Positions 42,995-60,364 of a stretch of 64,000 nt of DNA are shown piece after piece (the stretch's first letter is position 1; each line of letters starts with the position of its first letter). This DNA is from a candidate division FCPU426 bacterium (GTDB lineage Bacteria > Oederibacteriota > Muellerivitia > Muellerivitales > Muellerivitaceae): contig CAVYSE010000026.1 of NCBI GenBank assembly GCA_963771075.1, positions 80,687 through 144,686 of the forward strand, given 5' to 3'. Both the position numbers and the translations under genes were made by a program. The notes beneath the pieces are model-generated. The model was not told the origin of the DNA. It saw only the letters and a program-made list of their open reading frames with translations, and ran no database searches.

Positions 42995-43076
42995 AAGTGA
43001 GCGGGTGCCTGTCAATTCCTTCGCGGTGAAATTTCGGAAGTGTAAAACTTCCTTGGCCTAAGCCGTCCCTCTTCCC

Positions 43077-43742: not shown

Positions 43743-43870
43743 GCGCGCCTCGGTTCTAGGGAGCTAATAGGCTACCGCGTTTGATTCCGCGGGTGGCGAA
43801 AAAAAGGGTCATGCGCTTTGATATAGGCTTCCGAGTCTCCGGGGTAAAATTGGATGAGGGTTCGGGGTTT

Positions 43871-44581: not shown

Positions 44582-44650
44582 GACACCTTTCCGTTGGGAG
44601 GTTCCGAAACAGCTCCCCGTGTGGTCAGCCTAAATCCCGTCGTCCGGGGT

Positions 44651-45562: not shown

Positions 45563-45585
45563 GGATTGGGGCCCTTATGCCTGGA

Positions 45586-46086: not shown

Positions 46087-46257
46087 GATCGGGCTCCTTC
46101 CGGACGAAATAGATTATCACGGGTCAGCGGATCGGTTGAGGATAAAAAAATATTGTTAAATCGCGATAAAAAGGCGGGGGAATATTCCATGTGTCGCTGA
46201 ATCGGATCGGCATTTATCACCCAGTGGTTTCGCGATCTCCCTTCGCCCTGGACCTTT

Positions 46258-46971: not shown

Positions 46972-47076
46972 ATGTCAAAAAGGGTTGCCCCATCCCGCAT
47001 GCGAACGCCGGATACCCTGGATCGTCTCCCGAATTTTACTTCGCCGCCTTCATGGGGTCGGGAGGCAGGGAACTAA

Positions 47077-47822
47077 TCAATAACTGACTTGGGCGAGGTT
47101 ACCCGAAAGCACGCAGGAAGAGGATTGGGCTCCGGGGAATGCGGATGGCGAGTATTGGTAGACGCACATGACGACCGAATCAGTTCCGGCCCCGGGTGTT
47201 TCGTTGGTGAAAACAGAGTTAGCCACCGTGTAGGGATTGCTAGCCACCGGCGGCCCGAGATAGGCCAGGACCTGAGCCGAATTATTGAGAACGCGGATTA
47301 AGGTTACGTTCCCCACGCCGTTGGACCAGGAACAGGTCACACCCGCCGCGGCGGTAGAACTGGACGCGGATGCCACGGGATTACCGGCAATGCCAGTGAC
47401 CGAGGCGGTATAGGTTTGGGAACCGATTCCGACCAGGTAGGTATAGACCTGGCCCGCGTTATAGGTCATGGAGCAGTTAAATAAAGCCCCCGTGACGGGG
47501 GCGCGCCCGTATTCGTGATCCCGTAATCGTTGGTGAGGTTTCCCAGGGTGTTCATCGGCGTGGTAACCCCCGCGCTGACGAAACTGACGGCGGTATTAGC
47601 TGGCGCGGTATTGCCCGTGCTGTCGGCGACCCAGACGTCCGAGAGGCTGATGGAGCCATTTACCACAATCATCCCCACGATATAGGGCGCGGTTGAGGTG
47701 GGGGTCGGGGTCGGGTTATTGGCTGTGGTCGGTGAGTCGGATTTGGAACAACCGGCGGGGAGCAGGACGGCCAGGATGGACGCTGTCAATAAAGCCGATA
47801 GGGATAGCCAAGTCTTAGTCAT
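47077..47822 (-). CDS. Hypothetical lipoprotein (frameshift near 47.5 kb)
   Basis: Lipobox PAGC; two abutting ORFs joined at a C/G homopolymer. Confidence 0.55.
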
Positions 47823-47920
47823 ATAAAGCACCTCATTTGAATTTTCGTGAAAGAACCTGTACTAGTCTACCACCCAAAAGCCGGATCGAGGGTGGAGCAA
47901 CATCCAAAAACGCCCCATCT

Positions 47921-48757
47921 TCATTTGCTTTTCTTGATGACTGAATTCAAGAAAAGCGAAATATCCTCCAGGGTTTTCTCGGAGATTTGATGGCCCATGG
48001 AATATTCCTTGAACAGGGGATGGAAGCCCGCGTCCCTTAAGGCTTTTAATGTTTTTTGGGTGATCTCCTCCGTCACGATGGGGTCCATGGTCCCGTGGGT
48101 CAGGAGGATGGGTGTTCCGTTAGGGATCAGGGGATGGGCGAGTGTTTTGGATGGGTCCCAAATGTACCCGCTCATGGAAACGATGGCTAAAACCTTCCCC
48201 ATGTCGTTCAGTCCAGCTTCCAATGACATCACCCCGCCCTGGGAAAAGCCCATGATCACGAAAGGCCGAGGCTTCGCGGCGTCCCGGGTGAAGCGGTCGA
48301 TGACCTTAAAAAGATAATCGCGGCTATTCACGAAGTCAGACCGAAGATGGGTTTGCAGGTCGTACCAGGCAAGGGCGTCGGGGGAGTAGCCGGGCAGGTG
48401 AAGGGGGGCGTCGGGAAGCACGTAACGGCAGGGCGGCAGGTTGAGGCCGTCGCATAGGCCGGCCAAGTCATCGGCGTTGGCCCCCAAACCGTGGAGGATA
48501 AAAACCACAGGGGCTTCCGGCGGAAGGCCGGGAGGGTCTGCCACCAAACAACGGTGGTTCGCGACCGTCACCGGTATGGCGGCGCTCTGCCCATATAGCC
48601 CCGGGGCCGCCGAAAAAACGGCCAGCCACAGGAGGTAAAAGGCAGTGGGAAGCAACCGTGAAACCATGCTGACCTCCACCCCCAAGGGCTGAAAATTACG
48701 TCCTGCGCTTGCCAAAGGTCTTCCCGTCGTGGACAGACTCACAGCATTTTGCTTCAA
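47921..48757 (-). CDS. Phospholipase/carboxylesterase (alpha/beta hydrolase)
   Basis: LHGLGA, GFSQGG, HGTMDPIV and MGHQI; the true start is probably downstream of 48757. Confidence 0.85.
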   Translation of the reverse strand: MKQNAVSLSTTGRPLASAGRNFQPLGVEVSMVSRLLPTAFYLLWLAVFSAAPGLYGQSAAIPVTVANHRCLVADPPGLPPEAPVVFILHGLGANADDLAGLCDGLNLPPCRYVLPDAPLHLPGYSPDALAWYDLQTHLRSDFVNSRDYLFKVIDRFTRDAAKPRPFVIMGFSQGGVMSLEAGLNDMGKVLAIVSMSGYIWDPSKTLAHPLIPNGTPILLTHGTMDPIVTEEITQKTLKALRDAGFHPLFKEYSMGHQISEKTLEDISLFLNSVIKKSK

Positions 48758-48765
48758 AGTTCCGC

Positions 48766-49416
48766 TTACTTGCCATCCATCAGGAAATCTTCAGGGTGAT
48801 CCTTCACTCGTTGCAGATAAAGTGCCCCAAGATTTTCGCGCTGGGTGTAATGCATTTTATCCAGGTCATCCAACCCTTTATACATGGAGCCTTCCGTGAA
48901 AACTTTCCCCGGTTTGTGATTTTCCCAAGCCGGCGGGCGGGAATTTCCTGCCTTTTCGATGCGTTCGATGGCAATCTCAAGGAGCTTTTTGGTTTTGTAA
49001 GAGCCCATCAGTTCCAGTGCCTCCAAGCAAGCTTTTGCCATGGCCCCTTGGGATTCGAGAAAGCGGGTATTCTCGAAATATTGTGAAAATCCGCCGTTAT
49101 TGATTTCTCCATCCAGTTTATTGATGGAATAAATCGCCTTCAAACCTATGGGAATGTTGTCTTCGGTCTCATTCCCTTTTTCCTGTTGGGCATAGAGAAT
49201 AAGCAACCATTCCATGCAATCATCCACGCCCATCTTTTTGTTTTCATATCCAAAGGCGAATTGGGCGATGAGCTTCTCGAAAGGATAGGCTAAGAGGTCC
49301 TCCCCCTTGCTGTAACGTTGAACCAGGTCCTCGAAGCTTAAACGGGGGATTATATTTTTTCGGCGGTCAAATGACGCCGATTTGGCCGTGAAAATGTTTT
49401 TTAAAAAATCAAACAT
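48766..49416 (-). CDS. DUF4375/DMP19-like protein (cassette gene)
   Basis: LDGEINNGGFSQYFEN motif; ATG at 49416 after a GAAGGA RBS. Confidence 0.7.
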   Translation of the reverse strand: MFDFLKNIFTAKSASFDRRKNIIPRLSFEDLVQRYSKGEDLLAYPFEKLIAQFAFGYENKKMGVDDCMEWLLILYAQQEKGNETEDNIPIGLKAIYSINKLDGEINNGGFSQYFENTRFLESQGAMAKACLEALELMGSYKTKKLLEIAIERIEKAGNSRPPAWENHKPGKVFTEGSMYKGLDDLDKMHYTQRENLGALYLQRVKDHPEDFLMDGK

Positions 49417-49459
49417 AAGATCCTTCTCCCCAAAGAAGGCAATTGTACCATTGGTTGCT

Positions 49460-49524
49460 TGTCCTTGATGGGTCTCCCCCATGTAGCATGCGCTTGCGCT
49501 TAACTACTTGGCCCATCTTGGTCA
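49460..49524. repeat. Cassette-boundary site A (65-bp long form, degenerate)
   Basis: TGTCCTTGATGGGTCTCC-CCCATGTAGCATGCGCTTGCGCTTAACTACTTGG-CCCATCTTGGTCA. Confidence 0.85.
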
Positions 49525-49760
49525 ACTCAACATTCTGGGTTCTAGCCGCTTCTTGGAAAGAAGAAGTTTAACATCAGACCAAACAAGGTTATTCAAAATC
49601 CATTCAACGGCTGAAAACTCATATGGAATTCAGTTTTTCACTTCATGATAAAGATCACATTGAAATCCAAACAATAAATTAAAGAATCGGCGGATTCTGC
49701 CGTTAGAGTTATATATAGGTTTATTAAGAGCAAATTAATTTTGACTGGCCGGTGCCATAG

Positions 49761-52700
49761 GTGTCTATTATGAAATCGACGATCCGACAAAAGTGTTTTA
49801 TGCCCATCCCTGTTTTGATCGTGCTCTTTTTGTTCCTCATGGCCTTCAGGACGGGCCCCCCCATTCATCAGCAACCAAACCCCACACAGCCGCTAAAATT
49901 AAAAGAATCTTTCGGCAAACTGCCCTTGGCTTTCGAACCCAACCAGGGCCAATCCGATCCAACGGTCCAGTTCCTCTGCCGCGGAAGCGGCTATACCCTT
50001 TTCTTGACGGGTCAGGGGGCGGTACTCACGTTGCATAAAACCCAAAGTAGCTCCCCCCCGAAGTCGAAAAAGCTCAGGGCGCACAAGTTTTCCAAACTCA
50101 ACCGGCCCAAACCCGCGCCGCCCGACGTGATCCGCCTGACACTTTCGGGCACCCAAAACAACCTTTCCTTCAAGGGCCTGGAGAAACTTCCGGGCATTTC
50201 GAATTATTTCATCGGCGCCGACCCGGCCAAGTGGCTCACCCGCATCCCGCAATACGCCCAAATCCAGGCGGCGGAAGTTTATCCGGGCGTGGATATGACC
50301 TATTACGGCCGGCAGGGAAAACTCGAGTATGACTTCCAGGTGAAACCCGGCGCGGACCTGGGCGTGATCCGTATGAAGGTGGAAGGGGCGGATACAACCG
50401 AAGTCAACGGGGAAGGCAACATGGAAATTTCCGTGGGCGGACGGAAACTGGTCTTCCGGGCCCCGGCCCTCTACCAGGGAAAAGACAATGCCAAGACACC
50501 CGTGGAGGGAAAGTTTACCAAGATAGGCGCGAACGAAATTGGTTTCGAGGTGAAGGATTACGACAGAACCAAGACGCTCATTATTGACCCGACGTTGGAC
50601 TATTCCACTTATTTGGGGGGGATCACAATGAATGGAATGGATGATAGGCTCCTTTTTGGAATCGCTGTGGATTCCGACGGAAACGCTTATGTGACGGGAG
50701 GAGCCGACACCGATTTCCCGGCGACTCCCGGAAGTTTCCAGACAATCCAGGTGAGCGGCGCTTCCGACGCTTACGTCGCCAAACTAAACGCCTCCGGAAC
50801 GGCCCTTATTTATTCCACCTATTTGGGCGGGAGCTTTGTGGATTTCGGCTCGGGAATCGCGGTGGATTCCAATGGAAACGCTTATGTGGACGGCTTTAAC
50901 GGGTCACTGGATTTTCCTTATATCAGCGGCTCTTATACAAGTGATCCAACTTTTGACCCTACATTCAATTTGAGCGATATCTTCGTGGCCGAATTAAACT
51001 CAACGGGAACAGCCTTGGAATACACGTGTTTTATGTTGGGCTATCCCCCGCCTCAAAGCAGTGGTGAACCATCTGACGAACAACCCATGGGGATCGCGTT
51101 GGATTCGTATAATAACGCTTATGTTACTGGTTATACCGATTCAACCGTTTTTCCCACAACCTCGGGGGCTTTCTGGGCATCCAATCTCAATGAGGGCTAC
51201 GACACTTTTGCTTTTAAGTTGAATTCCACGGGGACGACCTTGGTTTACTCAACTTATTTGGGCGGTGAAGAAGACTGGGGTACTGGCATTGCCCTGGATT
51301 CAAAAGGAGACGCGTTTATTACCGGGTTTAGCGATGATCAGTCAATGCCCACTACGCCGGGAGCCTTTCAAACCCAAATGTTAGGCACGGAGGATCCGTT
51401 CGTTTTCGTTTTGAACCCTACCGGGTCAGGCTTGGTCTATGGAACCTACCTAGGCGGGGGTGGTAGTTTTATTTACGACCAAGGTTACGCTATCGCGGTC
51501 AATGACGCGGGAAACGCTTATGTGACGGGATTTACCCAATCCACTAGTTTTCCTACGACTTCCGGGGCTTTTCAAACGGCATTAATTGGTTCCGCAAATG
51601 CGTTTGTGTCCGAACTGAATCCTTCGGGAACGAGTCTGGTTTTTTCCACTTATTTGGGCGGTAGTAATGGCGACGATGGTCTTGGAATCGCCTTGAATTC
51701 ACAGGGAGATGTTTATATCACGGGCGGTACTGGTTCCACTGATTTTCCAACATCGCCAACAGCGTATCAAAGCAGCTTAATCGGCTCGGAAAATGCTTTT
51801 TTTACCGTGCTAAACCCAAGCGGCACCGGCTTGATCTATTCGACCTACTTGGGCGGCAGCGGCATGGATAATGGACAACAAATCACGGTCGACCCTGAAG
51901 GGAACGCTTATCTGGTCGGATACACCAATTCGACCGACTTCCCGACCACCTCCGGGGCTATTCAAACCTCCAATACGGGTGGTGGGGATTCATCCTTCGT
52001 CACAAAATTCGATGATACGATCATTTATATTCCTACCCCTTCGGGAACAACGACCCCCCTCCCGGCCACCGCCACACCCTCGATGTCATCCACTTCGACG
52101 CCAACCACTACCCCGACAGCGAGTTCGACAAACTCACCGCAGGCTACTTCCACGCCCACGGCCTCACCGACCCTCACCGCAATGTCGACAGCCAGCCTCA
52201 CGCCGACTCTTTCTCCCGCTTCTCAAGCCACCCCCACAGCGACAGCGAGTTCGACAAGCTCACCGCAGGCCACTTCCACGCCCCCACCGACCCTCACTGC
52301 AATGTCGACAGCCAGCCTCACGCCGACTCTTTCCCCCACTTCCCAAGCCACCTCTACAGCGACAGCGAGTTCGACAAGCTCACCACCAGCAACACCCACT
52401 TGGACTGAAACGCCGGTGTCTTCCGCCACCGCCACGGCCACTCAAACAGCGATCTGGACCGCGGTTCTGACAAGCTTGCCGCAAGCCAGCCCCTCTTTAA
52501 CGCCCCAGCCAACGGCGACACCAACGTCCGCTTTCACGGGATTAACAGCTATCGTTTATCCCAACCCCGCCATCACCTCCTCTTTTTCAATAGGCGTTGG
52601 CGGTTTCGCACTACCCTCCGACATCACGGTCCAAATCTTCACCACCGCCTTCCGGAAGGTCCAACAAACATCTTTTTCTAATGTGACCCCAGGCCAACGG

Positions 52701-52820
52701 CTTCCATTGACCCTCACGGACAGGGAAGGGCAACCACTGGCAAACGGGCTTTATTACGTAGCCGTGAATTTGACCAACTTGGGGTTCCGGACTGTGGGTA
52801 AACTTTTAATCCTTCGGTAA
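49761..52820 (+). CDS. Secreted SBBP beta-propeller repeat protein with Thr/Ser linker and T9SS-like C-terminal domain
   Basis: LPLAFEPNQGQ, repeated YSTYLGG and GIAVDSxGNAYVTG; C-terminal VYPNP...LANGLYYV. Confidence 0.85.
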   Translation: MSIMKSTIRQKCFMPIPVLIVLFLFLMAFRTGPPIHQQPNPTQPLKLKESFGKLPLAFEPNQGQSDPTVQFLCRGSGYTLFLTGQGAVLTLHKTQSSSPPKSKKLRAHKFSKLNRPKPAPPDVIRLTLSGTQNNLSFKGLEKLPGISNYFIGADPAKWLTRIPQYAQIQAAEVYPGVDMTYYGRQGKLEYDFQVKPGADLGVIRMKVEGADTTEVNGEGNMEISVGGRKLVFRAPALYQGKDNAKTPVEGKFTKIGANEIGFEVKDYDRTKTLIIDPTLDYSTYLGGITMNGMDDRLLFGIAVDSDGNAYVTGGADTDFPATPGSFQTIQVSGASDAYVAKLNASGTALIYSTYLGGSFVDFGSGIAVDSNGNAYVDGFNGSLDFPYISGSYTSDPTFDPTFNLSDIFVAELNSTGTALEYTCFMLGYPPPQSSGEPSDEQPMGIALDSYNNAYVTGYTDSTVFPTTSGAFWASNLNEGYDTFAFKLNSTGTTLVYSTYLGGEEDWGTGIALDSKGDAFITGFSDDQSMPTTPGAFQTQMLGTEDPFVFVLNPTGSGLVYGTYLGGGGSFIYDQGYAIAVNDAGNAYVTGFTQSTSFPTTSGAFQTALIGSANAFVSELNPSGTSLVFSTYLGGSNGDDGLGIALNSQGDVYITGGTGSTDFPTSPTAYQSSLIGSENAFFTVLNPSGTGLIYSTYLGGSGMDNGQQITVDPEGNAYLVGYTNSTDFPTTSGAIQTSNTGGGDSSFVTKFDDTIIYIPTPSGTTTPLPATATPSMSSTSTPTTTPTASSTNSPQATSTPTASPTLTAMSTASLTPTLSPASQATPTATASSTSSPQATSTPPPTLTAMSTASLTPTLSPTSQATSTATASSTSSPPATPTWTETPVSSATATATQTAIWTAVLTSLPQASPSLTPQPTATPTSAFTGLTAIVYPNPAITSSFSIGVGGFALPSDITVQIFTTAFRKVQQTSFSNVTPGQRLPLTLTDREGQPLANGLYYVAVNLTNLGFRTVGKLLILR

Positions 52821-52953
52821 CTTCATTGCGGATCCAAACCAACCGGTCGTAGGAAAACTGCTGAGAAATTCGGCTTTTTACTTGGTGAACGAAATAGGTG
52901 CCTGGCTTCCCGCTCCGCAGCGGGAAGCAGGGACCATTATTTATTATTTGCCC

Positions 52954-52981
52954 TATCCACGATGGGCCCCTGTCGTGGACA
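52954..52981. repeat. Cassette-boundary site B (28 bp)
   Basis: TATCCACGATG-GGCCCC-TGTCGTGGACA. Confidence 0.9.
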
Positions 52982-53001
52982 AAATATCCAATAACCGTAG
53001 G

Positions 53002-53577
53002 TCAGGGATAAAGTTTTTCGCCTTTGGAAAGCATTACCACGAATTGCTTGATTCGTTTCTGTCGGGTTTCCGGTTTTTTCGCGGTTTGAAGCCGGTAAAT
53101 GATGGCGTAAACATTAGAGCGGTTCAATGTTTCCAAAAAGACCTTAGCCTTCCTGCTTTTACTTACCGCTCGCAAAAAATCCTCGGGTAATTTGGCCGAA
53201 CTTTGAGGGTGATAGGCCTTGGACCAGCGTCCATCTTTTTTGGCTGATTCGATTAACTTCAACCCAGCCGGTTTCATCCGTCCTGCTTTGATGAGGCGTT
53301 CAGCGTGGCCTACATTGATCTTCGACCAAACACCTTTCAACCGACGCGGACCAAATTTCTGAAGCCAGACCTTATCATCAAATGCAGCCTTTTGGCCGTC
53401 AATCCAGCCGTAACAAAGGGCACCATCCAGGGCGTCCGGGTAATTAACCGAGAGGGTTTGAGAATCTTTCTTAAATATTTTCAGCCAAACGCCCTGGGAC
53501 GAATCATGATTCTCGTCCAGCCACCTTTCCCAGTCTTGAGCCGATTTGAAAGAAACGATTTTTAAATCCTGAACCAT
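53002..53577 (-). CDS. YdeI/OmpD-associated family protein (cassette)
   Basis: ALCYGWIDG, WSKIN and AKKPETRQKRI. Confidence 0.88.
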   Translation of the reverse strand: MVQDLKIVSFKSAQDWERWLDENHDSSQGVWLKIFKKDSQTLSVNYPDALDGALCYGWIDGQKAAFDDKVWLQKFGPRRLKGVWSKINVGHAERLIKAGRMKPAGLKLIESAKKDGRWSKAYHPQSSAKLPEDFLRAVSKSRKAKVFLETLNRSNVYAIIYRLQTAKKPETRQKRIKQFVVMLSKGEKLYP

Positions 53578-53638
53578 TTATAAACCTTTCTTTTTTCAGC
53601 GAAATAGGCGCCTTGCCGCCATTATCCATTGTTTTCTT

Positions 53639-53703
53639 TGTCCGCGATGGGTCCCCGCCATGTAGCATGCGCTTGCGCTTAGCTACATGGCCCGCCGTGG
53701 ACA
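53639..53703. repeat. Cassette-boundary site C (65-bp long form)
   Basis: TGTCCGCGATGGGTCCCC-GCCATGTAGCATGCGCTTGCGCTTAGCTACATGGC-CCGCCGTGGACA. Confidence 0.92.
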
Positions 53704-53724
53704 ACCATTTTCAAACTTATGTAC

Positions 53725-54060
53725 TTACCCTAACTGTAGGAGAGAAGAAACTTTATCGACCACCGCTTGAAGCGTTTCCGGCGACACTTTCCCTTTGTAG
53801 ACGGCTTTTCGTTCTTTCCAATCTAAATTCTTTAAATGGTCTGAAAGCACTACTCCATGAACGGAACCAGAGATAAGCGCCACTTCGAAGGGGTACCCCT
53901 TCACTTGGGATGTAATGGGGCACATGACCGCCAAGCCCGTCTTTCGGTTGTATTCTTTGGGTGATAAAACCAAGGCAGGCCGTTGCCCCGCCTGTTCACG
54001 CCCTGCTTGCGGGGCGAAATTGAGCCAAACCACATCACCACGATCCGGGGTATAGTCCAT
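53725..54060 (-). CDS. mazF: MazF endoribonuclease toxin
   Basis: PDRGDVVWLNF-PQAGREQAGQRPALVLSP and CPITSQVKGYPFEV. Confidence 0.93.
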   Translation of the reverse strand: MDYTPDRGDVVWLNFAPQAGREQAGQRPALVLSPKEYNRKTGLAVMCPITSQVKGYPFEVALISGSVHGVVLSDHLKNLDWKERKAVYKGKVSPETLQAVVDKVSSLLQLG

Positions 54061-54063
54061 GAA

Positions 54064-54303
54064 TTACCAAACCTCTTTTCCGACCGGTCGCCCGGTTTGG
54101 GTTTCGTCGTGGAGATTACCCGGCTTAATTTGCGAAAGGAGCTCTTTAAGGGATGGCTTGGCCTGGGCAGGTTTGATCAAAAGGTTCCCCTTTTCTTCCG
54201 TCAATTCGACAGAACCCCCTTCCTTGACTTTAATATATTCCGCCATGGATTTAGGTATCCGCAGGGCAAGACTATTACCCCACTTTTGTACAACGGTTTT
54301 CAT
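54064..54303 (-). CDS. mazE: MazE/AbrB-type antitoxin
   Basis: VQKWGNSLALRIPK and C-terminal PVGKEVW. Confidence 0.93.
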   Translation of the reverse strand: MKTVVQKWGNSLALRIPKSMAEYIKVKEGGSVELTEEKGNLLIKPAQAKPSLKELLSQIKPGNLHDETQTGRPVGKEVW

Positions 54304-54322
54304 GAAAATCCCCCTGTTGGTT

Positions 54323-54366
54323 AATGTATCTACAATGAATATACATTGAGTTTAATCAAATGTCAA
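54323..54366 (-). promoter_or_regulatory. mazEF promoter with palindromic operator
   Basis: Minus strand TTGACA-17 bp-TATATT; inverted repeat AATGTAT...ATACATT overlaps the -10 box. Confidence 0.7.
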
Positions 54367-54372
54367 AAAGGT

Positions 54373-54400
54373 CAGCCACGAAGGGCCAGCGTCAGGACCA
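54373..54400. repeat. Possible eroded cassette-boundary site D
   Basis: CAGCCACGAAG-GGCCAG-CGTCAGGACCA, a partial match at the expected position. Confidence 0.4.
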
Positions 54401-54491
54401 GACCTAAAAGGTCTAGCGTAACCCTTTTAATAGTTGGGCCGAGTTAGAAAGGGGACCGAATAAGCCGGCCAAAGATGTGTAATACCCTGAT

Positions 54492-55124
54492 TCATGGTTT
54501 GGTCCCATGGATCGTTTGGTTGGCGGTCTTCTCGAAAATAGGCAAATAATTTGCCCACTTCTCTTCGGGAGTGTAAAAATTAAGCATCACCTGTTTTTCT
54601 CTGAGAAAATAAATATATCCCAACGTTTTATGAAAGAAGAACTTTTTGAGGGAATTATCGTTGTTCATGATCCGGGTAACTATCCTTAAAACTGAAACGC
54701 CGTTGACCTGGACAATGCTTATTTCCAACAAGGCCATTCCCTTGTCTTTGTTTTTCTGAGCCAAAGACTCGAACGATTTTTCGAGGGCGTCCAAAGCTTC
54801 TTTCACATTTAAATGTTCCGGGTCCAATCCCACCACTTCCAGCGGGACGGCCACGGCGGTTAGGTAAGTCGCCCCAACATCCTGGAAAGATTCCGGATCC
54901 GCGGCGATGATGGAGTGGGAGTTTTTTGGGAGGCGCATATTCTCTGATAGCGATAAGAGTTCGGACGGGATATTGCCGGTTTTTCCGACCTTGACCCTGA
55001 TGCCGACATCGATCCAACCGTTCGGCATTGACACGATGACCGGCCTTTTTTGGTCTTCAACCGCCGAACAAACGCTCAAAGACAACAAGGGGTAAAAAAG
55101 AAACAATAAAAAATATTTCATCAA
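54492..55124 (-). CDS. Hypothetical secreted protein (cassette)
   Basis: Signal-peptide-like N-terminus; AGGA RBS. Confidence 0.6.
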   Translation of the reverse strand: MMKYFLLFLFYPLLSLSVCSAVEDQKRPVIVSMPNGWIDVGIRVKVGKTGNIPSELLSLSENMRLPKNSHSIIAADPESFQDVGATYLTAVAVPLEVVGLDPEHLNVKEALDALEKSFESLAQKNKDKGMALLEISIVQVNGVSVLRIVTRIMNNDNSLKKFFFHKTLGYIYFLREKQVMLNFYTPEEKWANYLPIFEKTANQTIHGTKP

Positions 55125-55204
55125 TTTAAGCCAGTTCCTTTCCGCTTATTAAATACATGAGATTCGGAACAAAGGTGTCGTCCACCCAAATCCAATATTC
55201 TGCT

Positions 55205-55269
55205 TGTCCAATCCGGGACCCCGCCATGTAACATGCGCTTTCGCTTAGCTACATGGCCCGTCGTGGTCA
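55205..55269. repeat. Cassette-boundary site E (65-bp long form)
   Basis: TGTCCAATCCGGGACCCC-GCCATGTAACATGCGCTTTCGCTTAGCTACATGGC-CCGTCGTGGTCA. Confidence 0.88.
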
Positions 55270-55280
55270 ATGATATTGGA

Positions 55281-55436
55281 TTAAACAGATTTTCCTTTTT
55301 TTCTTCGAAGCTTTTTTAACGATGCGGGCAACGGCCGGCATCCACAAGCTCGGGCGTGTTTAAAATGCCAGGCCAAGCGCTGCTCAAGGGTTGGCTTTTT
55401 AGGCATCGGATGTTTTTCGTGCCAAATATTATTCAT
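55281..55436 (-). CDS. 51-aa His/Cys-containing protein (cassette; absent from the ORF track)
   Basis: Manual translation MNNIWHEKHPMPKKPTLEQRLAWHFKHARACGCRPLPASLKKLRRKKGKSV; fills the gap between sites F and E. Confidence 0.7.
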   Translation of the reverse strand: MNNIWHEKHPMPKKPTLEQRLAWHFKHARACGCRPLPASLKKLRRKKGKSV

Positions 55437-55461
55437 CTTCCACATCCTTATTTCTTTTGAT

Positions 55462-55489
55462 TGTCATCGCCGGGTCCCCGTCGTGGACA
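55462..55489. repeat. Cassette-boundary site F (28 bp)
   Basis: TGTCATCGCCG-GGTCCC-CGTCGTGGACA. Confidence 0.88.
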
Positions 55490-55515
55490 AGTTTTTTAGA
55501 CGCTAAATCATTAGG

Positions 55516-55827
55516 CTATAAGCCTAACGCGAAATGGATGGCCTGCCGTACCTCATTCATTTTGGAGGCGGGCAAGGCCGTGATGAGCCCGCCCAATTTC
55601 GCCTTAGAGATTGTCTGGATATGGTCGCAGTTCACTGCGCAATCTTTCCCGAGTCCCTCATGGGGTCCCACCGACACCTCGCTAGGAATATTCCGGATGG
55701 TAGAGGTCAGAGGCGCGACGGTTACTTCGCCCAAATATTCAAGGATGGAGTTTCGCGTGAGGATCAAAACCGGCCGTTTCTTATCAGGATGGGTGAACTT
55801 ATACCAGCGAATTTCCCCCCGCTTCAT
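55516..55827 (-). CDS. PemK/MazF-family toxin
   Basis: MKRGEIRWY...DKKRPVLILTR and VTVAPLTSTIR. Confidence 0.9.
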   Translation of the reverse strand: MKRGEIRWYKFTHPDKKRPVLILTRNSILEYLGEVTVAPLTSTIRNIPSEVSVGPHEGLGKDCAVNCDHIQTISKAKLGGLITALPASKMNEVRQAIHFALGL

Positions 55828-56057
55828 TCGTCACCCCAGGCTTGTTCCTTTTCCCAAGCTCCCATCTCGCCAAGAGTGAAAGGGTGGTTTTGATAGCCCT
55901 GGCGATGTTGTTGTTCCAATTGCCGGGTTTTAAGATGACGAAGGGCATCCTTCAGCGCTAGCCGGGTGAAAGCGGACCGGGTTGTTTTCAATTTTTTAGC
56001 GGCAATATCCACAGACTTTATCAGTTCATCCTCCAACGTCATTTGTACCGTCCTCAT
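55824..56057 (-). CDS. Ribbon-helix-helix antitoxin
   Basis: MRTVQMTLEDELIKSVD...TRSAFTRLAL; 4-bp overlap with the toxin; paired ATAGCTAT palindromes upstream (56073-56092). Confidence 0.85.
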   Translation of the reverse strand: MRTVQMTLEDELIKSVDIAAKKLKTTRSAFTRLALKDALRHLKTRQLEQQHRQGYQNHPFTLGEMGAWEKEQAWGDE

Positions 56058-56131
56058 GAACCCCTCCCACAAATAGCTATATTCATAGCTATAATAGTAT
56101 ACAGACCAGTCGATATATCAAGTTCTAAGGT

Positions 56132-56196
56132 GGTCCGCGATGGGTCCCCGGCATGTAGCATGCGCTTGCGCTTAGCTACATGGCCCGTCGTGGACA
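56132..56196. repeat. Cassette-boundary site G (65-bp long form)
   Basis: GGTCCGCGATGGGTCCCC-GGCATGTAGCATGCGCTTGCGCTTAGCTACATGGC-CCGTCGTGGACA. Confidence 0.92.
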
Positions 56197-56224
56197 GGCA
56201 TTGCGTCACTAAAAATTAAGATTT

Positions 56225-56854
56225 TCATTCCGGAATTCCCCAATTATTAAATAGTTCCGTATCTCTTTTGTGGAGTGTGCACTTTTTAATGGTGATGGCG
56301 GGCATTGAAATTAAACGGTCCGAAACTTTGGCCAGGAAATCATCCCTCTTGGAATAGACCTCCCAAGAACGCCCATCCTCGCAGAAAAAGCAGACCTCGG
56401 AATGCTTTTGGATCAGGTCATAGTATAAGTTCCGTGTGGCCGGGGCGAACGCCTGGAATAATGCCAAGGCCAATGGCTTGAAAGTACTCTCGGGCCCGGG
56501 GAGACCGATGAGGTCAAGGCTATCATCCCTCAGATACTTGGCGTGTTTTGGAAGGATGCCGCATTTCATTCCGCAGGCCCCTCCATTCTCAAATTCCGGG
56601 ATCGAAATGGAGTATTTGCCATGCTCTTCCATGCCGCCAGGCACATAGGTCAAGTCTACAAAGGGAGTGGATTGGAAGGCGTGCGCGAACCAATAGTATG
56701 GTTGGAGGTCGGGGAGAATGGTTTCAAAGAAATACTCAAAGGCCCTCCGCCCCGCGGGAACACCGAAAACCCTTTTTTTGTCGGCTTCGACGGCGGATTT
56801 GGACCCGAAGGAATGGATGCCGGGATTTTCAAATTTAATATAAAGACCATTCAT
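56225..56854 (-). CDS. Hypothetical protein (cassette)
   Basis: Single ORF filling the interval between sites H and G. Confidence 0.65.
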   Translation of the reverse strand: MNGLYIKFENPGIHSFGSKSAVEADKKRVFGVPAGRRAFEYFFETILPDLQPYYWFAHAFQSTPFVDLTYVPGGMEEHGKYSISIPEFENGGACGMKCGILPKHAKYLRDDSLDLIGLPGPESTFKPLALALFQAFAPATRNLYYDLIQKHSEVCFFCEDGRSWEVYSKRDDFLAKVSDRLISMPAITIKKCTLHKRDTELFNNWGIPE

Positions 56855-56876
56855 CGCTTACCATCCAATATTTCGT

Positions 56877-56928
56877 TGTCCGCGATCCCTGCCCCAAGCC
56901 GGGGGCTTGGGGCTCCCCATTGTGGACA
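56877..56928. repeat. Cassette-boundary site H (52 bp, different inner hairpin)
   Basis: TGTCCGCGAT-CCCT-GCCCCAAGCC-GG-GGGCTTGGGGC-TCCCC-ATTGTGGACA. Confidence 0.85.
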
Positions 56929-56996
56929 ACGATTTCAGGGGAACTCCCCCATCCCTCACGACAGCTAATTTAGGGAATGATTAACCAGTTAGCCGC

Positions 56997-57593
56997 CTAT
57001 TCACCAATAGTACCTGTCTTGACTTTTCCAGCTCGCTTGTAATTGGCAATAATCACTCCACTTGGCGTAACAATGCTCTCTATTAATGTAAACGTTGTCG
57101 GAGCCGCGCCACTTTCAAACAATTTTTTCCCTTTACCAAGGGTCAAAGGGAAAATCTTGAGCCTGAGTTCGTCCACTAAATCATTCTTAAGTAGTAGCTG
57201 AATAAGTTTACTGCTGCCCCAAACTTGAATGTCAAAACCTTCCGAATTTTTGACCTTTTTGATATCCGCCAAGCTTTTGAAGAATACTGTGTTTTTCCAT
57301 TCTGACTTTTTCACGGTCTTGGACAGGACGTATTTTGTGCCATCATTGATACCAGGCCAAATGTCCGCGTGTTTAGGCCAGAAAGAGGACCACATCGCAA
57401 ACGTTTTTCTGCCCAAAAGATAATCCGCGGTTTGTTTCAACTCTTTTTGCACCACCGCATTACCGACTTCGTCACCATACGGCGCACTCCAACCGCCATA
57501 TTTGAAACCCCCTGATTTATCTTCCTGGGGACCACCTTGTGCTTGCATGACTCCATCTAATGTAATCATTGATAAGACGATTATCTTTCTCAT
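56997..57593 (-). CDS. Dihydrofolate reductase-like / RibD C-terminal family protein (cassette)
   Basis: MRKIIVLSMITLDGVMQ, LLGRKTF, IQVWGSSKLIQ and PLTLGKGKKLF. Confidence 0.88.
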   Translation of the reverse strand: MRKIIVLSMITLDGVMQAQGGPQEDKSGGFKYGGWSAPYGDEVGNAVVQKELKQTADYLLGRKTFAMWSSFWPKHADIWPGINDGTKYVLSKTVKKSEWKNTVFFKSLADIKKVKNSEGFDIQVWGSSKLIQLLLKNDLVDELRLKIFPLTLGKGKKLFESGAAPTTFTLIESIVTPSGVIIANYKRAGKVKTGTIGE

Positions 57594-57634
57594 GTATTTA
57601 CACCTTCAAAGTTTAATGCCTATGACGTTTTAGG

Positions 57635-57662
57635 TGTCCGCGATGGGTCCCCATCATGGACA
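57635..57662. repeat. Cassette-boundary site I (28 bp)
   Basis: TGTCCGCGATG-GGTCCC-CATCATGGACA. Confidence 0.9.
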
Positions 57663-57681
57663 AGCGTTAATCAAGAATCAC

Positions 57682-58521
57682 CTAATTTGTAAATGTGACC
57701 GCATGGTTGAAAACATTCTTAAACGTAGAATTAACTAAAGGTTTCGAGGGATCTACTTGATCAACATCGTAATAACGATAGATGATCTGATTTTGCCTCT
57801 TTTCTATCTCTGCATATCCCCAGGGATGAGCCGTGGCAAAATCAAATTTCAACAATGTTTTGGTTGATGTCATTTGATCCAACGAACGGAAAAATACGAA
57901 ATCTTTTTTATTCAATGTTTTTTTCATCTTAAAGAGCATCAATACATACCGTTCAAGAAACGCCTTTTCCACAGAGACTTCTGCTCCATTGTCCGTAGTC
58001 TGGCCATACACCATCCAAATATTTCTTGCCTTTTTGATCAATTTCTCAGGATCGGTAATTTTCTCTAAAGGATATTTTTCAACGAGTCTAAGAGAATCAC
58101 GCCAACTGCATCGGAGGGCACGATATTTATGTTCGTGGGTTCTCTTCAAATATAATACCCACTGACTGATATCGGTTCGATCAATCGTAAAAGAAAATAG
58201 AATCGTAGTAGCGTCTGGATCCGAAAAATCTGATATGTCTATTTCTGCCTCAGTATTGGCCGGATTTAAAACCCCCCGGAAGTCTTGGGTCTTAAATAAT
58301 TGCCGTACAGGTATTACCCCAATTTTTTTTACCTCTAAGGTCGCATTTGAAAAATAGTCAAAAGAAATGATTAAATCTGCTTGATCGAATGCTTGAATGA
58401 TTGGAAGACCATAACTTTTATGTGGAGTTGGCATCATTAAAGAAGGCTGTGCGAATAAAAGGGCTGAACATAAAAAGTAACCGGTTGCCAATAGGATCAT
58501 TTTTGATAAACCAATATTCAT
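57682..58521 (-). CDS. Hypothetical secreted protein (AT-rich cassette)
   Basis: Signal peptide, GAGG RBS; fills the interval between sites J and I. Confidence 0.7.
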   Translation of the reverse strand: MNIGLSKMILLATGYFLCSALLFAQPSLMMPTPHKSYGLPIIQAFDQADLIISFDYFSNATLEVKKIGVIPVRQLFKTQDFRGVLNPANTEAEIDISDFSDPDATTILFSFTIDRTDISQWVLYLKRTHEHKYRALRCSWRDSLRLVEKYPLEKITDPEKLIKKARNIWMVYGQTTDNGAEVSVEKAFLERYVLMLFKMKKTLNKKDFVFFRSLDQMTSTKTLLKFDFATAHPWGYAEIEKRQNQIIYRYYDVDQVDPSKPLVNSTFKNVFNHAVTFTN

Positions 58522-58546
58522 TTATGCCTCACATAACATTTTTACC

Positions 58547-59008
58547 TTATTTACTAAAAACCATGTCCACGATGGGTCCCCGTCGTGGACAACCATGAAC
58601 TATCAAAAATCCGTTACCACCATTTTCCGGGTTGCTTATTTTCGTTAAACTGACCCAAGCATTCATTTCGAGACTGATATAGGTCGCAACCGCATCAATT
58701 GAACTTTTAAATGTTAATTCATGGCCCAGATTCGGTTTGGGATCTTTGATGCCATATCCAGTGATCCGATAATATCCATCCTGCCCCCAACTGCTGAATG
58801 TCCACCCAAAATCCGTTCGTTTGTCTGACCACCCAATCCATTTATCTATTAAATCCTTGTGGCCTTCTAAATATTCTTTGAAGTCTTCAACACAAATGTT
58901 CTTCCGGTGGTCCATAAATCCGGATTCTTTTAAATAATCTTGAATCGATTTGTCCGATATGAGGGGGTACCGGCATATCGTTTGGGCGATTTCTTTCAAA
59001 TCTTCCAT
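58547..59008 (-). CDS. Hypothetical protein (cassette); reading frame runs through site J
   Basis: GGGGGA RBS before ATG at 59008. Confidence 0.6.
   Translation of the reverse strand: MEDLKEIAQTICRYPLISDKSIQDYLKESGFMDHRKNICVEDFKEYLEGHKDLIDKWIGWSDKRTDFGWTFSSWGQDGYYRITGYGIKDPKPNLGHELTFKSSIDAVATYISLEMNAWVSLTKISNPENGGNGFLIVHGCPRRGPIVDMVFSK
58564..58591. repeat. Cassette-boundary site J (28-bp consensus)
   Basis: TGTCCACGATG-GGTCCC-CGTCGTGGACA. Confidence 0.95.
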
Positions 59009-59060
59009 TTTTTATCCCCCCAGGTCATGTTGACCAACCCCCAGCTGAGCCAATTTTACC

Positions 59061-59088
59061 TGTCCACGATGGGTCCCCGTCGTGGACA
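59061..59088. repeat. Cassette-boundary site K (28-bp consensus)
   Basis: Identical to site J. Confidence 0.95.
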
Positions 59089-59120
59089 ACCACTTACCAC
59101 ATTTAAAACCATTCCTGAAA

Positions 59121-59806
59121 TTATCCCATCCCAAGGTCTTTTACAAAATTTGCATCATCCTTAAATTTTTTAACCCCTAATTGATCAGCAATGATTCTTC
59201 TAACTACTGTTCTCACCTCACCAGGTCTCCATGCCTTAACTTTCATCCTAATCTTTTCGGGTGCTTTCTAACGATATAACTGACAATATCTTCAACACGT
59301 TTCACTTCCGAAATTAAAAACGAATTTCTTGGGTACTTGTTGGTCAAAATAAAGCCAATAACAATAGCTCCAATTGCGCAAAACAGACTCCAAGCAATAC
59401 TCCTGGCTCGATAATAAGTGAAAGCAAAAATGGTTGCCGAAAGAAACCATAGTGTCACCTGAAGCCAGACAGGCCTAGCCAGTTTTGGAAACGTAGATAA
59501 CCCCATTTTTTTCTGCCAAGAACTCCAAAATTCAATGCGATTTTTTTTAGGAACTATTTCTCTAAGAAGAGACTTTGGGCGAAACATTGCCCTTGGAATC
59601 GTCTCCAATTTCATGAAAGAATTTCGGCATAAATGAAAGGCTTTTTGGGACAAACACCGTTCGTCACCTTCCTCGATGTTGATCTTTGAAGCAACAAGGT
59701 CAATAAGGATTCTTGGCGTTGAACACTTCATAGCCTCCTCGTCTGATATCGAAATTTTAAAAACATCTTCGACTTGTAAGATAATTTCCAATCCATCCAA
59801 TCCCAC
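59121..59806 (-). CDS. Membrane protein with acyl-carrier-like termini (cassette; frameshift near 59255)
   Basis: N-terminus MGLDGLEIILQVEDVFKISISDEEA; one added A continues the frame into ...IIADQLGVKKFKDDANFVKDLGMG*. Confidence 0.65.
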
Positions 59807-59849
59807 TTATGCCTCCCAATATTAGACTGCGATTTCTTCGCTTTTATCC

Positions 59850-59877
59850 TGTCCACGATGGGTCCCCGTCGTGGACA
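59850..59877. repeat. Cassette-boundary site L (28-bp consensus)
   Basis: Identical to sites J and K; immediately followed by the intron-like sequence. Confidence 0.95.
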
Positions 59878-60364
59878 TCGTGCCAGCGAAGGTTTGTAGA
59901 GCCAGCAGGTGAGGGAGTAGGCCGAAGAGGGCCAGCCCAAATCCTGACCAGGTAATCGCCAGAGAGCCTGGAAGTCAGCCCCCGGCGTAGGACCGAGAGG
60001 TTCTGCCCGAAACGGGGTCATAAACCTCATTCAGTGAGGGAACAATCTAGCAGTCCGCAACATCAAGTGAATCCTGCCGCGTCGTGAATGGGACACCGAA
60101 AGGTGCAAGAGGATGCCGAGCCGCGTGTCTACCGGCGAAGGCCACGATCCCGCTGAAGAATCTGGAGCAAGCGGGGCAAGTCCTCCGGCGTATGGGGAAC
60201 GGAATGCTGGAAAGGCTTTGCAAGCAACCTGGGAGATCCTACCCACCAAAAGACTTGCCGCTATAAGGCTAAAACCGAAAGGGGCAAGGGCGGGAGGAAT
60301 TCGGAGGGGGTCACAATACCTGTGAAGGGTGGACAACAAAACCACCTGGGAGGGAGAGGGACCC
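59878..60364 (+). mobile_element. Group II intron (IIB-like), 5' part covering domains I-III, truncated by the fold-back
   Basis: Start (TC)GTGCCAGCG, GTGAATCCTGC, GCCGAGCC-loop-GGCGAAGGC, AACCTGGGAGATCCT and the D2/D3-like TCGGAGGGGGTCACAATACC...GGAGGGAGAGGGACCC. No RT ORF or domain V is visible. Confidence 0.72.

Follow-up and report, generated by a model that had tools for sequence, protein, structure and literature searches.

How single genes come to stand in a row between copies of a short palindrome, and which enzyme may move them, is the question raised by a locus of a candidate division FCPU426 bacterium (GTDB lineage Bacteria; Oederibacteriota; Muellerivitia; Muellerivitales; Muellerivitaceae). 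The stretch analysed, called the window below, comprises 64,000 nt of assembly GCA_963771075.1 (contig CAVYSE010000026.1:80,687-144,686, forward strand). A sequence-only reading had described it as a cassette capture and shuffling system with its own recombination site, and had compared that site to those of tyrosine recombinases such as dif. The non-attC cassette array was upheld here, but the tyrosine-recombinase comparison was not. We consider it reasonably probable that about 12 mobile cassettes form an array in the window on sites of a 13-2-13 layout and are likely moved by a short serine recombinase whose gene is on another contig (C8). The site survey covered 30 sister genomes of the family and 30 genomes outside it. 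Below, G000 is the genome of the window (96.7% complete), G001-G003 belong to the same genus and G027 to another genus.

The site and the array of the window

The motif scan, made with the consensus containing N6 and allowing at most three mismatches, gave 15 strand-matches in the window against the 0.00 expected from 100 shuffles. A motif copy or relic in a single orientation was present at all 12 positions reported earlier (Table 1). The motif described as 11 clear and one eroded 28-bp copies is real, but just five of the 12 are plain 28-mers with zero to three mismatches. The 28-bp site at 55462 has a divergent left arm, four copies are 65-bp variants with an inner 34-nt hairpin, one is a 52-bp variant with a hairpin unlike that of the 65-bp forms, and one is eroded. 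The 65-bp variant at 53639 is built of site positions 1-18, the 34-nt hairpin, and CCC with the right arm. Altogether five of the 12 sites carry a hairpin of 24-34 nt near the centre, which should block dimer binding to duplex DNA and falls outside the account of the model given below.

The best layout of the site is 13-2-13, TGTCCACGAYGGG-TC-CCCRTCGTGGACA, rather than the 11-6-11 proposed before. G12 and G13 pair with C16 and C17, so 13 nt of each arm pair and only the central TC stays unpaired and asymmetric. By comparison, attC sites are 57-141 bp long, have RYYYAAC and GTTRRRY cores and fold in the bottom strand, where some bases stay extrahelical. These cores were found in none of the 12 sites within 22 nt of an end, whichever strand was read, in line with the earlier description of a non-attC site, and the plain sites are 28 bp long. 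The Rfam scan with E-values up to 1 gave no family at the sites of the window.

The left boundary of the array is a hybrid site that the earlier reading overlooked. With at most two mismatches allowed, the right half-site has no match in the window before 48721, which agrees with the report of no copy in the first 49 kb; four more copies closely precede the window on its contig (C26:73627-80233). The reported cargo was recovered in the form of DMP19/DUF4375, YdeI/OmdA and RibD_C genes, two MazF-type toxin-antitoxin pairs and hypothetical proteins, with one interval occupied by a gene of 1019 aa on the plus strand. In the second toxin-antitoxin pair the antitoxin candidate (55824-56072) scored 16.6 bits with RHH_1, under the 20.5-bit cut-off. 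A 1-nt deletion at 58653 makes the gene at 58547-59008 read 153 aa, whereas its length in G027 is 131 aa. Also the statement that the window contains no recombinase gene was confirmed.

The head of the array had been expected beyond 59.9 kb. Instead, the last site is followed by the 5' stub of a 2.0-kb group II intron and then by an inverted, imperfect copy of part of the array that runs to the contig end and includes five inverted site copies at 60.8-63.8 kb, which had been overlooked. This inverted copy could be an artefact or a real duplicate, and the far end of the array is lost in the intron and the fold-back. Eleven further copies of the intron were detected, every one adjoined by a site or site-like sequence.

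Table 1. Sites, cassette genes and flanking elements of the array, in window positions
Position	Strand	Feature	Remarks
48708-48735	+	Leftmost hybrid site: non-site left half, canonical right half (TTCCCGTCGTGGACA)	Right half 48721-48735, 1 mismatch
48766-49482	-	Cassette gene, DMP19-like (DUF4375)	PF14300, 57 bits
49460-49524	+	65-bp site variant with inner hairpin, eroded	
49761-52820	+	Gene of 1019 aa, DUF7948 and beta-propeller repeats	Strand opposite to remaining cargo
52954-52981	+	Plain 28-bp site	2-3 mismatches
53002-53577	-	Cassette gene, YdeI/OmdA	
53639-53703	+	65-bp site variant	
53725-54303	-	Toxin-antitoxin cassette	MazF 53725-54060, MazE 54064-54303
54373-54400	+	Eroded site relic	Read from sequence; no match in any pattern scan
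54492-55124	-	Cassette gene, 210 aa, no Pfam family	Weak TIR-like PADLOC match, E 1.6e-4
55205-55269	+	65-bp site variant, degenerate	
55281-55445	-	ORF of 54 aa	Sole ORF of its cassette
55462-55489	+	28-bp site, divergent left arm (TGTCATCGCCGGG)	Canonical right half
55516-56072	-	MazF-like toxin and weak ribbon-helix-helix antitoxin candidate	Toxin 55516-55827, antitoxin candidate 55824-56072
56132-56196	+	65-bp site variant	
56225-56854	-	Cassette gene, 209 aa, no family	
56877-56928	+	52-bp site variant	Different inner hairpin
56997-57593	-	Cassette gene, RibD_C (DHFR-like fold)	
57635-57662	+	Plain 28-bp site	
57682-58521	-	Cassette gene, 279 aa, no family	
58564-58591	+	Plain 28-bp site	Exact consensus
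58547-59008	-	Cassette gene, 153 aa as read	
59061-59088	+	Plain 28-bp site	Exact consensus
59243-59806	-	Cassette gene, 187 aa	N-terminus weakly ACP-like
59850-59877	+	Plain 28-bp site	Exact consensus; last before intron
59878-60335	+	5' 458 nt of group II intron, directly after site	RF02003, 60.9 bits (gathering score 49)
60336-64000	-	Inverted, imperfect second copy of 56668-60312	To contig end

Distribution of the sites and sharing of cassettes

Of the approximately 83 copies of the site in G000, 13 are single and 70 fall into 13 clusters; the genome has at least ten arrays. The site was present in 24 of the 30 sister genomes and in none of the 30 genomes outside the family, and its sequence is nearly invariant across the whole family. 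Genome-wide scatter of the motif had been named as a finding that would speak against cassettes; single copies do occur, but the copies cluster around variable accessory cassettes and are not placed between conserved genes. All sites in one array are direct repeats, with one site for each cassette and the cassettes co-oriented; in 32 of the 34 intervals between sites the longest ORF runs against the site orientation. Cassette length is 0.2-3.4 kb, and the cassettes carry no recombinase of their own and are found at many loci.

The comparison of relatives proposed earlier showed that cassette content and order differ. Cassettes recur singly in other genera with 96-100% identity and unrelated neighbours. 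The window segment 58564-59062 has 99.2% identity over 500 bp with G027, the flanks being unrelated, and a cassette elsewhere in G000 (C28:108365-108795) agrees at all 431 bp (100% identity) with the cassette that comes first next to the recombinase gene of G024. A third (C21:3283-4957) has 96.2% identity over 1675 bp with G004, sites bounding both ends, and two arrays of G004 share a 1276-bp cassette in copies of 100% identity. As to the other cargo of the window, the YdeI/OmdA cassette has single-cassette homologues in other contexts in G001, G003 and G006, the MazF/MazE cassette an 88% identical single cassette between two sites in G001, and the second toxin-antitoxin cassette homologous single cassettes in at least eight relatives; homologues of the RibD_C gene are present in many relatives in differing contexts. 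The cassettes with 99-100% identity in different genera indicate recent transfer.

Homology between genomes ends inside site positions 14-17. In the C28/G024 pair identity begins at site position 14, and in the C21/G004 pair mismatches are confined to positions from 18 onwards at one junction and to positions up to 11 at the other. An unusual left half (TGTTCACGAAGGG) accompanies the cassette to its left in G004 as well as in G027. Among the four copies of the recombinase gene 3' end in G000, one left half (TGTTCCTTTTGGG) is joined to three different right halves.

A short serine recombinase and the alternatives

A serine recombinase of 275-281 aa, with a catalytic and a recombinase domain and no zinc ribbon, was found in five genomes of the family (in G000 at C8:80002-80832). 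The G000 protein matches PF00239 with 79 bits and PF07508 with 44 bits and ends at residue 277. An alignment of 40 sequences shows no variation at Y16, R18, S20, D89, R90 and R93, among them the catalytic Ser and Arg columns. In the Foldseek search the fold matched large serine integrases, with 4kis_A and 6dnw_A, entries of the LI integrase C-terminal domain with DNA, at 2.5-2.8 Å rmsd over approximately 130 columns. The zinc ribbon PF13408 was detected in none of the 19 ortholog clusters of 275-283 aa, which hold this length at 68-96% identity. Longer relatives carry it, the nearest (up to 58% identity) being large serine recombinases, and in distant homologues the DNA past the matching point encodes Cys-rich ribbon sequence. 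The best NCBIfam matches, CcrB (74 bits, cut-off 900) and CcrA (60 bits, cut-off 700), are far below the cut-offs. Assignment to the small serine recombinases (resolvases and invertases), which have about 180-200 aa, a simple C-terminal helix-turn-helix and accessory sites or an enhancer, was rejected, the C-terminal part being a PF07508 recombinase domain. We know of no natural serine recombinase of this domain make-up with shown activity. PMC3783163 describes how a large serine integrase reads half-site positions 16-24 with its zinc-ribbon domain and contacts positions 9-11 with the helix of the recombinase domain; with these contacts, an enzyme lacking the ribbon would be expected to cover about 13 bp of each half-site.

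In all five family genomes with the full gene, it ends 15-36 nt before a site or half-site: the stop codon precedes a site in G000, G027, G004 and G024, and in G020 it precedes a left half with TC, after which non-site DNA follows. The gene ends before a site also in two metagenome contigs. The full gene was present in five of the 12 family genomes with at least 15 site matches and in none of the 19 with fewer. Searched with this recombinase as the query, it was absent from the other seven site-rich genomes, including G001-G003, G008 (49 site matches, 98% complete) and G021, which has only a fragment; G000 has in addition three 5'-truncated copies. In the loci with the gene, it is located at the other array end, downstream of the cassette genes, and converges on them in G000, G004 and G027. 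As the cassette genes point at the recombinase gene, no common platform promoter can drive them. This protein is the only recombinase found adjoining such sites in several genomes and is the likely candidate for their enzyme, with a putative catalytic role.

The lack of the full gene in seven of the 12 site-rich genomes, its truncated copies, and the many eroded or interrupted sites could also mean that the arrays are fossils in which nothing moves any more, the short protein being an inactive, truncated remnant of a large serine recombinase. This is unlikely in view of the length and identity kept in the 19 ortholog clusters, the invariant catalytic residues and the near-identical cassettes in different genera. 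Quite unlikely, too, are 11-6-11 core sites of a tyrosine recombinase, either Xer-like or a dedicated integrase, with movement as in pdif modules or integrons and exchange at the edges of the GGTCCC spacer. The exchange bracket 14-17 does fall within the 6-bp spacer, G000 has eight PF00589 matches, and in single genomes tyrosine recombinases are present 1.2-5.5 kb from a site (G006:C1:1321885, G004:C2:1186149 and the three-gene set G014:C4:40745-43148). However, none of the tyrosine recombinases adjoins a site in two or more genomes, in G000 the 370-aa class and the three-gene set are away from all arrays, and no IntI is present there, the best of 11 TIGR02249 matches genome-wide having 41.8 bits against a cut-off of 265. 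The pairing of G12/G13 with C16/C17 leaves only two asymmetric nucleotides, and direct repeats run throughout the array, unlike the alternating pdif arrangement. The 13-nt arms around TC, and the short serine recombinase as the sole site neighbour in multiple genomes, give the dif-like interpretation no support.

The mobile elements beside the sites offer another explanation, in which an IS110-family RNA-guided recombinase with copies inside the arrays moves the cassettes, or the sites are mainly a target of the IS110 element and the group II intron. A 358-aa IS110-family gene (243 bits, NF033542) abuts a site in G000 (C5 and C9) and in G027, and the intron shows the constant association described above. 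These are nevertheless discrete units of 1.4 and 2.0 kb beside sites, with their own ends and 99% identity, and the cassettes have no such ends. Neither element is present at most sites, another IS110 type (340 aa) is mostly outside the arrays, and the exchange point is the site centre and not the edge, making this explanation very improbable. Least probable of all is an incidental cassette appearance of an extragenic, REP-like palindrome that a REP-associated HUH tyrosine transposase has spread, even though the motif is a hairpin-forming palindrome at many loci, G000 has 20 Y1_Tnp matches and one 313-aa type passes the NCBIfam model of REP-associated tyrosine transposases (88 bits, cut-off 80). 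Against it, none of the 17 transposase genes checked has a site within 900 bp, the nearest being from 914 bp to over 100 kb away and more than 5 kb away for 12 of the 17, and the genes belong to multi-copy 1-kb elements with a different end repeat of their own. The clustering of 70 of 83 sites, the strict polarity of genes against sites, the inter-site DNA that differs between relatives and the homology breaks inside the site also disagree with such a palindrome.

Proposed mechanism and relation to known systems

In the serine-recombinase model, a recombinase dimer would bind each 28-bp site through the recombinase domain, two sites would pair, and all four strands would be cut with a 2-nt stagger at the central TC, after which half of the complex would rotate before religation. 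Since TC is not its own complement, only one register would allow two sites to pair. From two direct repeats of an array, a circle of one cassette with one site would be released. Reinsertion of this circle could take place at any site of an array, at the site next to the recombinase gene or at a chromosomal sequence resembling the site. Read in the direction of its gene, a cassette would consist of the variable half-site, a ribosome-binding site, the ORF or ORFs and the conserved half-site. The array of the window would be recombinase-less and served in trans, by analogy with an integrase-less attC cluster. Because the sites are identical everywhere and the enzyme has no coiled coil, excision should outrun integration, and the persistence of arrays is outside the model's account.

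The arrays resemble integrons and CALINs in having co-oriented, mostly single-gene cassettes with one site each, cargo rich in toxin-antitoxin pairs and unknown genes, cassettes common to several genera, and, in some arrays, a terminal recombinase gene together with a special first site, while many lack the recombinase. Integrons depend on a single enzyme family and on attC sites in folded single-stranded form; here the site is instead a duplex-type 28-bp palindrome, near-invariant in the family and without attC cores, the candidate enzyme is a serine recombinase, each genome has at least ten arrays, and no divergent integrase gene with a common promoter is situated upstream. Group IIC-attC introns and IS1111-attC elements insert specifically at the cassette recombination site; likewise, the site of the present arrays serves as a target for an IS110-family element and a group II intron, although it is a 28-bp site and not attC.

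Large serine recombinases (Bxb1, phiC31, LI/A118, SPbeta) share with the candidate the catalytic and recombinase domains and the non-palindromic central dinucleotide. The candidate lacks zinc ribbon and coiled coil and therefore any known directionality control, is associated with one 28-bp site type rather than distinct attP and attB of 40-50 bp, and is linked to arrays of tiny cassettes and not to a phage or integrative element. The serine recombinases CcrA and CcrB of SCC similarly insert elements in tandem at one site with direct repeats between them, but SCC elements measure tens of kb, bring along their ccr genes and use a single fixed site in rlmH, in contrast to the small, recombinase-free cassettes at many loci. 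In the Acinetobacter pdif modules (XerC/XerD), 28-bp sites also bound small accessory or toxin-antitoxin modules and one half-site is more variable, yet pdif sites, which resemble dif, alternate in orientation, whereas the sites here are direct repeats with a 2-nt centre and no Xer link was found in the genomes compared.

To our knowledge, the stockpiling of single genes as site-bounded cassettes is established for integrons alone, and no description of a system like the present one was found in a full-text search of the literature outside subscription journals. If the model is true, cassette banking has evolved more than once, here with a serine recombinase and a short duplex site as the unrelated components of a gene-capture system resembling the integron. 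It would expose a mobile gene pool invisible to integron-finding software and provide genome engineering with a naturally minimal serine recombinase (277 aa, a 28-bp site and possibly no directionality control). On balance we favour the view that this family of uncultured soil and bog bacteria runs an integron-convergent capture system, in which a large-serine-type recombinase without zinc ribbon would insert and excise at one and the same minimal 28-bp site of 13-2-13 layout, and at least ten arrays per genome would hold toxin-antitoxin and accessory cassettes that pass between genera and are parasitised by a site-homing group II intron and an IS110-family element.

Sites, cargo and distribution

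Searched with its six central nucleotides left free (≤3 mismatches), the consensus gave 15 strand-matches in the window, 0.00 being expected from 100 shuffles. All 12 positions listed in the sequence-only reading were recognized, by sequence reading and looser pattern scans, as a copy or relic of the motif in a single orientation, and the left part of the window was free of copies as that reading had stated, no site being present left of the terminal hybrid site. The uniform 28-bp form it described held for five plain 28-mers, the remaining copies being more varied than claimed (Table). BLAST located the 34-nt hairpin (GCCATGTAGC...GCTACATGG) at 13 places in the genome, including window positions 53657-53690, all 13 inside a site at the same spot, where it follows GGGTCCCC and CCC is repeated; possibly it is a very small insert that targets sites. 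Different hairpins were present at nearly the same spot in other sites (56877, C26:78222 and the metagenome loci L078 and L109; C numbers denote contigs and L numbers loci fetched around sites).

Table. Sites of the array and copies of the recombinase gene (bare coordinates refer to the window)
Feature	Position	Remarks
Plain 28-mer sites	52954, 57635, 58564, 59061, 59850	
Site with divergent left arm	55462	
65-bp site forms	49460 (eroded), 53639, 55205, 56132	34-nt GC-rich hairpin after GGGTCCCC, CCC repeated
52-bp site form	56877	another hairpin
Eroded site	54373	
Terminal hybrid site, left end of the array	48721-48735 (right half)	right half canonical, left half non-site
Candidate recombinase, full gene	C8:80002-80832	
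5'-truncated recombinase copy	C6:158404-158967	starts at residue 105
5'-truncated recombinase copy	C8:42239-42778	starts at residue 113
5'-truncated recombinase copy	C28:107693-108019	starts at residue 184

The genome of the window (G000; other G numbers are family genomes, G001 to G003 of the same genus) included about 83 sites, 70 of them in 13 clusters over 9 contigs, with 4 of these 70 belonging to an inverted arm, and 13 single. The site (≤3 mismatches) was detected in 24 of the 30 other family genomes, the genera numbering 12 including that of G000, and was absent from all 30 genomes outside the family (one from the same order and 29 from the same phylum); as a control, the pattern in reverse matched in no genome. 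The nearly complete G004 (5 contigs) had at least 10 arrays. Synteny of the left flank with G001 was confined to 36.7-43.0 kb of the window (66-79% identity), and therefore no empty insertion site was recoverable within the genus. At 43000-48700, left of the array, same-genus synteny was already gone and pieces matched other contigs, one of them adjoining cassette homologues in G002:C1, where canonical sites were not found; this stretch may represent an earlier array whose sites have decayed.

The cargo named in the sequence-only reading was recovered as DMP19, YdeI/OmdA, RibD_C, two MazF-type pairs and hypothetical proteins, with one 1019-aa gene on the opposite strand to the other cargo. The other arrays of G000 carried alike PIN/VapB, ParE, YafQ, HicA, BrnT/BrnA, TacA/GNAT and DUF5615/DUF433 pairs, together with GNATs and many family-less proteins. 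PADLOC gave only two matches, both weak. Of 34 intervals, 32 had their longest ORF on the strand opposed to the orientation of the site (binomial p = 7e-8). The G+C content was 47.1% in the array vs 53.3% in the remainder of the window, and from 36.5% to 52% in single cassettes. A 131-aa cassette ORF reads through a site to 153 aa because of a 1-nt deletion at 58653 that neither G027 nor the inverted copy shares.

The claim that the sites are not attC agreed with the absence of RYYYAAC/GTTRRRY cores from all 12 sites, and IntI was not found in G000 (96.7% complete; best TIGR02249 match 41.8 bits vs cut-off 265). Neither were any of the sites called terminator-like, and promoter-like (16 vs 13.6 in shuffles) and terminator-like (17 vs 15.7) counts showed no excess. 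Spread of the sites as REP-like palindromes would have its enzyme in G000, where REP-associated transposase-like genes exist (88 bits vs cut-off 80), but none of the 17 checked had a site within 900 bp, and the 1-kb elements end in a 100-bp repeat of their own that has no relation to the 28-bp site. These multi-copy elements of about 1 kb occupied 17 loci in G000 (e.g. C3:341989-342930 and C26:76422-77261), and their 313-320-aa protein, in which an IS200-like Y1 domain is combined with a DnaA C-terminal helix-turn-helix, passed the NCBIfam model for REP-associated tyrosine transposases.

Transfer of cassettes and the point of exchange

Comparison of cassette content between relatives, proposed earlier as a check on cassette shuffling, agreed with the proposal: the array was matched one cassette at a time, the matches being spread over different contigs and never collinear. 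In G001 the YdeI and MazEF cassettes were on separate contigs, both flanked by sites and in the company of other genes. Window 58564-59062 was 99.2% identical over 500 bp to a copy in G027, of another genus, with both flanks unrelated; in G027 an IS110-family element was present at the edge of the next site. Further pairs emerged when the fetched loci were compared all against all. The 431 bp of G000:C28:108365-108795 matched the first recombinase-side cassette of G024 with 100% identity, and the two-gene cassette G000:C21:3283-4957 matched G004 over 1675 bp with 96.2% identity and a site at either end. G004 also included a 1276-bp cassette as 100% identical duplicates in two arrays. To judge from these sequence comparisons, the cassettes move as units. 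The site-fetched metagenome contigs gave few matches to G000 at ≥90% identity, records near the window's genome being possibly left out, and 11 sequencing runs, all available as contigs, contained part of the window (best share 0.33).

The IS110-family element (1.4 kb, 358 aa, RNA-guided transposase type; NF033542, 243 bits) adjoined the outer edge of a site at three places in two genera, G000:C5:85584-86948, G000:C9:1839-3203 and L020 9329-10695 (G027), and has a parallel in the IS1111-attC elements of integrons.

In the C28/G024 pair the left halves of the site differed up to position 13, with identity from T14 on, and in the C21/G004 pair one junction was mismatched at + positions ≥18 and the other at + positions ≤11. 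G004 and G027 had an unusual left half (TGTTCACGAAGGG) in common, as well as the cassette to the left of it, the right halves being different, and in the metagenome pair L092/L117 position 19, past the right junction, was mismatched. Together these four cases bracket the exchange to positions 14-17, including the central TC. The bracket fits the reading of the site as 13-2-13 and also the 6-bp spacer of a tyrosine-type (11-6-11) site. Genome-wide the core and right arm (GGGTCCCCGTCGTGGACA) were kept and the inner left arm was variable, the recurrent forms being TGTCCAATCC, which represents the class-B left arms, TGTCCAATGC and TGTCCACTCC; the variable left arm is immediately followed by the ribosome-binding site and start codon of the minus-strand gene. 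At L217 7745-10148 (G014:C4:40745-43148) three adjacent tyrosine recombinase genes were separated by 1.2 kb from the site that ends an array, and the same kind of three-gene set was located in G000 (C5:132275-135002) far from any array.

The right edge of the array

The array head expected beyond 59.9 kb was not there: the 5' part of an intron was found instead, followed by an inverted copy to the contig end, which is the right edge of the window. A group II intron (RF02003, 60.9 bits; gathering score 49), represented here by its 5' 458 nt, starts directly after the site at 59850-59877. This stretch, 59878-60335, had 11 further copies in G000 (12 in total: window and C2, C3, C4, C5, C6, C9 and C21), with identities of about 96-99.9% (further copies 95.9-99.3%); full copies were 2.0 kb and coded for a 529-aa reverse transcriptase-maturase. 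Every copy adjoined a site or site-like sequence, the introns lying directly after sites on either strand relative to the TC asymmetry. With cmscan against Rfam (E up to 1), 47000-64000 gave the group II intron only, plus spurious microRNA matches to the fold-back hairpin.

From the fold-back at about 60335, 60336-64000 is the reverse complement of 56668-60312 with 94.3% identity (122 mismatches, 57 gap openings). The differences formed a mosaic: the 279-aa cassette was 100% identical, the RibD_C ORF had about 10% substitutions within the ORF only, and the part from 58.6 kb on was indel-rich, with 12 of 53 indels in homopolymers. One site centre was replaced in the inverted copy (61585: ...GACAAGAATACATC...). 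The copy may have arisen by folding back in the assembly or may be a genuine duplicate that has decayed, and under either origin the DNA beyond 59.9 kb is not the array head.

A candidate serine recombinase

PF00239 had one match in G000, C8:80038-80478, within a 277-aa ORF with Resolvase and Recombinase domains and no zinc ribbon. In G000, G027, G004 and G024 the gene ends 15-36 nt short of a site; in G020 its stop codon is followed by a canonical left half and TC and then by non-site DNA, an arrangement that, from its sequence, looks like an empty docking site. Adjacency thus concerned all five family genomes with a full gene, G020 with its half-site, and a homologue in 2 of 72 compared site-fetched metagenome contigs had its 3' end facing a site in both. 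The neighbouring cassettes are encoded on the other strand, in convergent orientation to the gene. Between the stop codon and the first site there is a short palindrome, TCAGTAGTACTGA (L044 4837-4850, G000:C8), kept across genera (also G027 and metagenome locus L103), which could be an operator or a terminator.

Three 5'-truncated copies were 96-99.8% identical to the full gene, each heading its own small array. All three end in one left half, TGTTCCTTTTGGG, and the right half that follows it differs from copy to copy, which again places the exchange between the two halves. An origin of the truncated copies at pseudo-sites was ruled out by their left junctions, which have no half-site.

Orthologs formed 19 clusters (275-283 aa, 68-96% identity), with catalytic residues invariant; the next relatives (≤58% identity) were large serine recombinases with a zinc ribbon. 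The candidate is of the large-serine type and lacks a defining domain. Its AlphaFold model (mean pLDDT 79.8) matched large serine integrases, with 2.5-2.8 A rmsd to LI integrase C-terminal domain-DNA structures. According to PMC3783163, positions 16-24 of the 25-bp half-site are read by the zinc-ribbon domain, and positions 9-11 are in contact with the recombinase-domain helix. By analogy with these contacts, a recombinase without the zinc ribbon would need about 13 bp per half-site, which would match 13-2-13 and also fit the conservation being strongest in the outer GTGGACA. The hairpin-bearing site variants are a weak point, without explanation in the recombinase model.

The full gene was present in 5 of 12 genomes with at least 15 site hits and in none of 19 with fewer (Fisher p = 0.005, a value that overstates the evidence, the genomes being related). 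Among the seven site-rich genomes without it were G008, which is 98% complete, and the three of the same genus. On sequence grounds, the short serine recombinase is the candidate enzyme of the arrays. No description of such a system came up in full-text searches, subscription journals lying outside the search coverage. By membership the array is not an integron; in function, by analogy, it would work like an integron with integrase-less satellite arrays.
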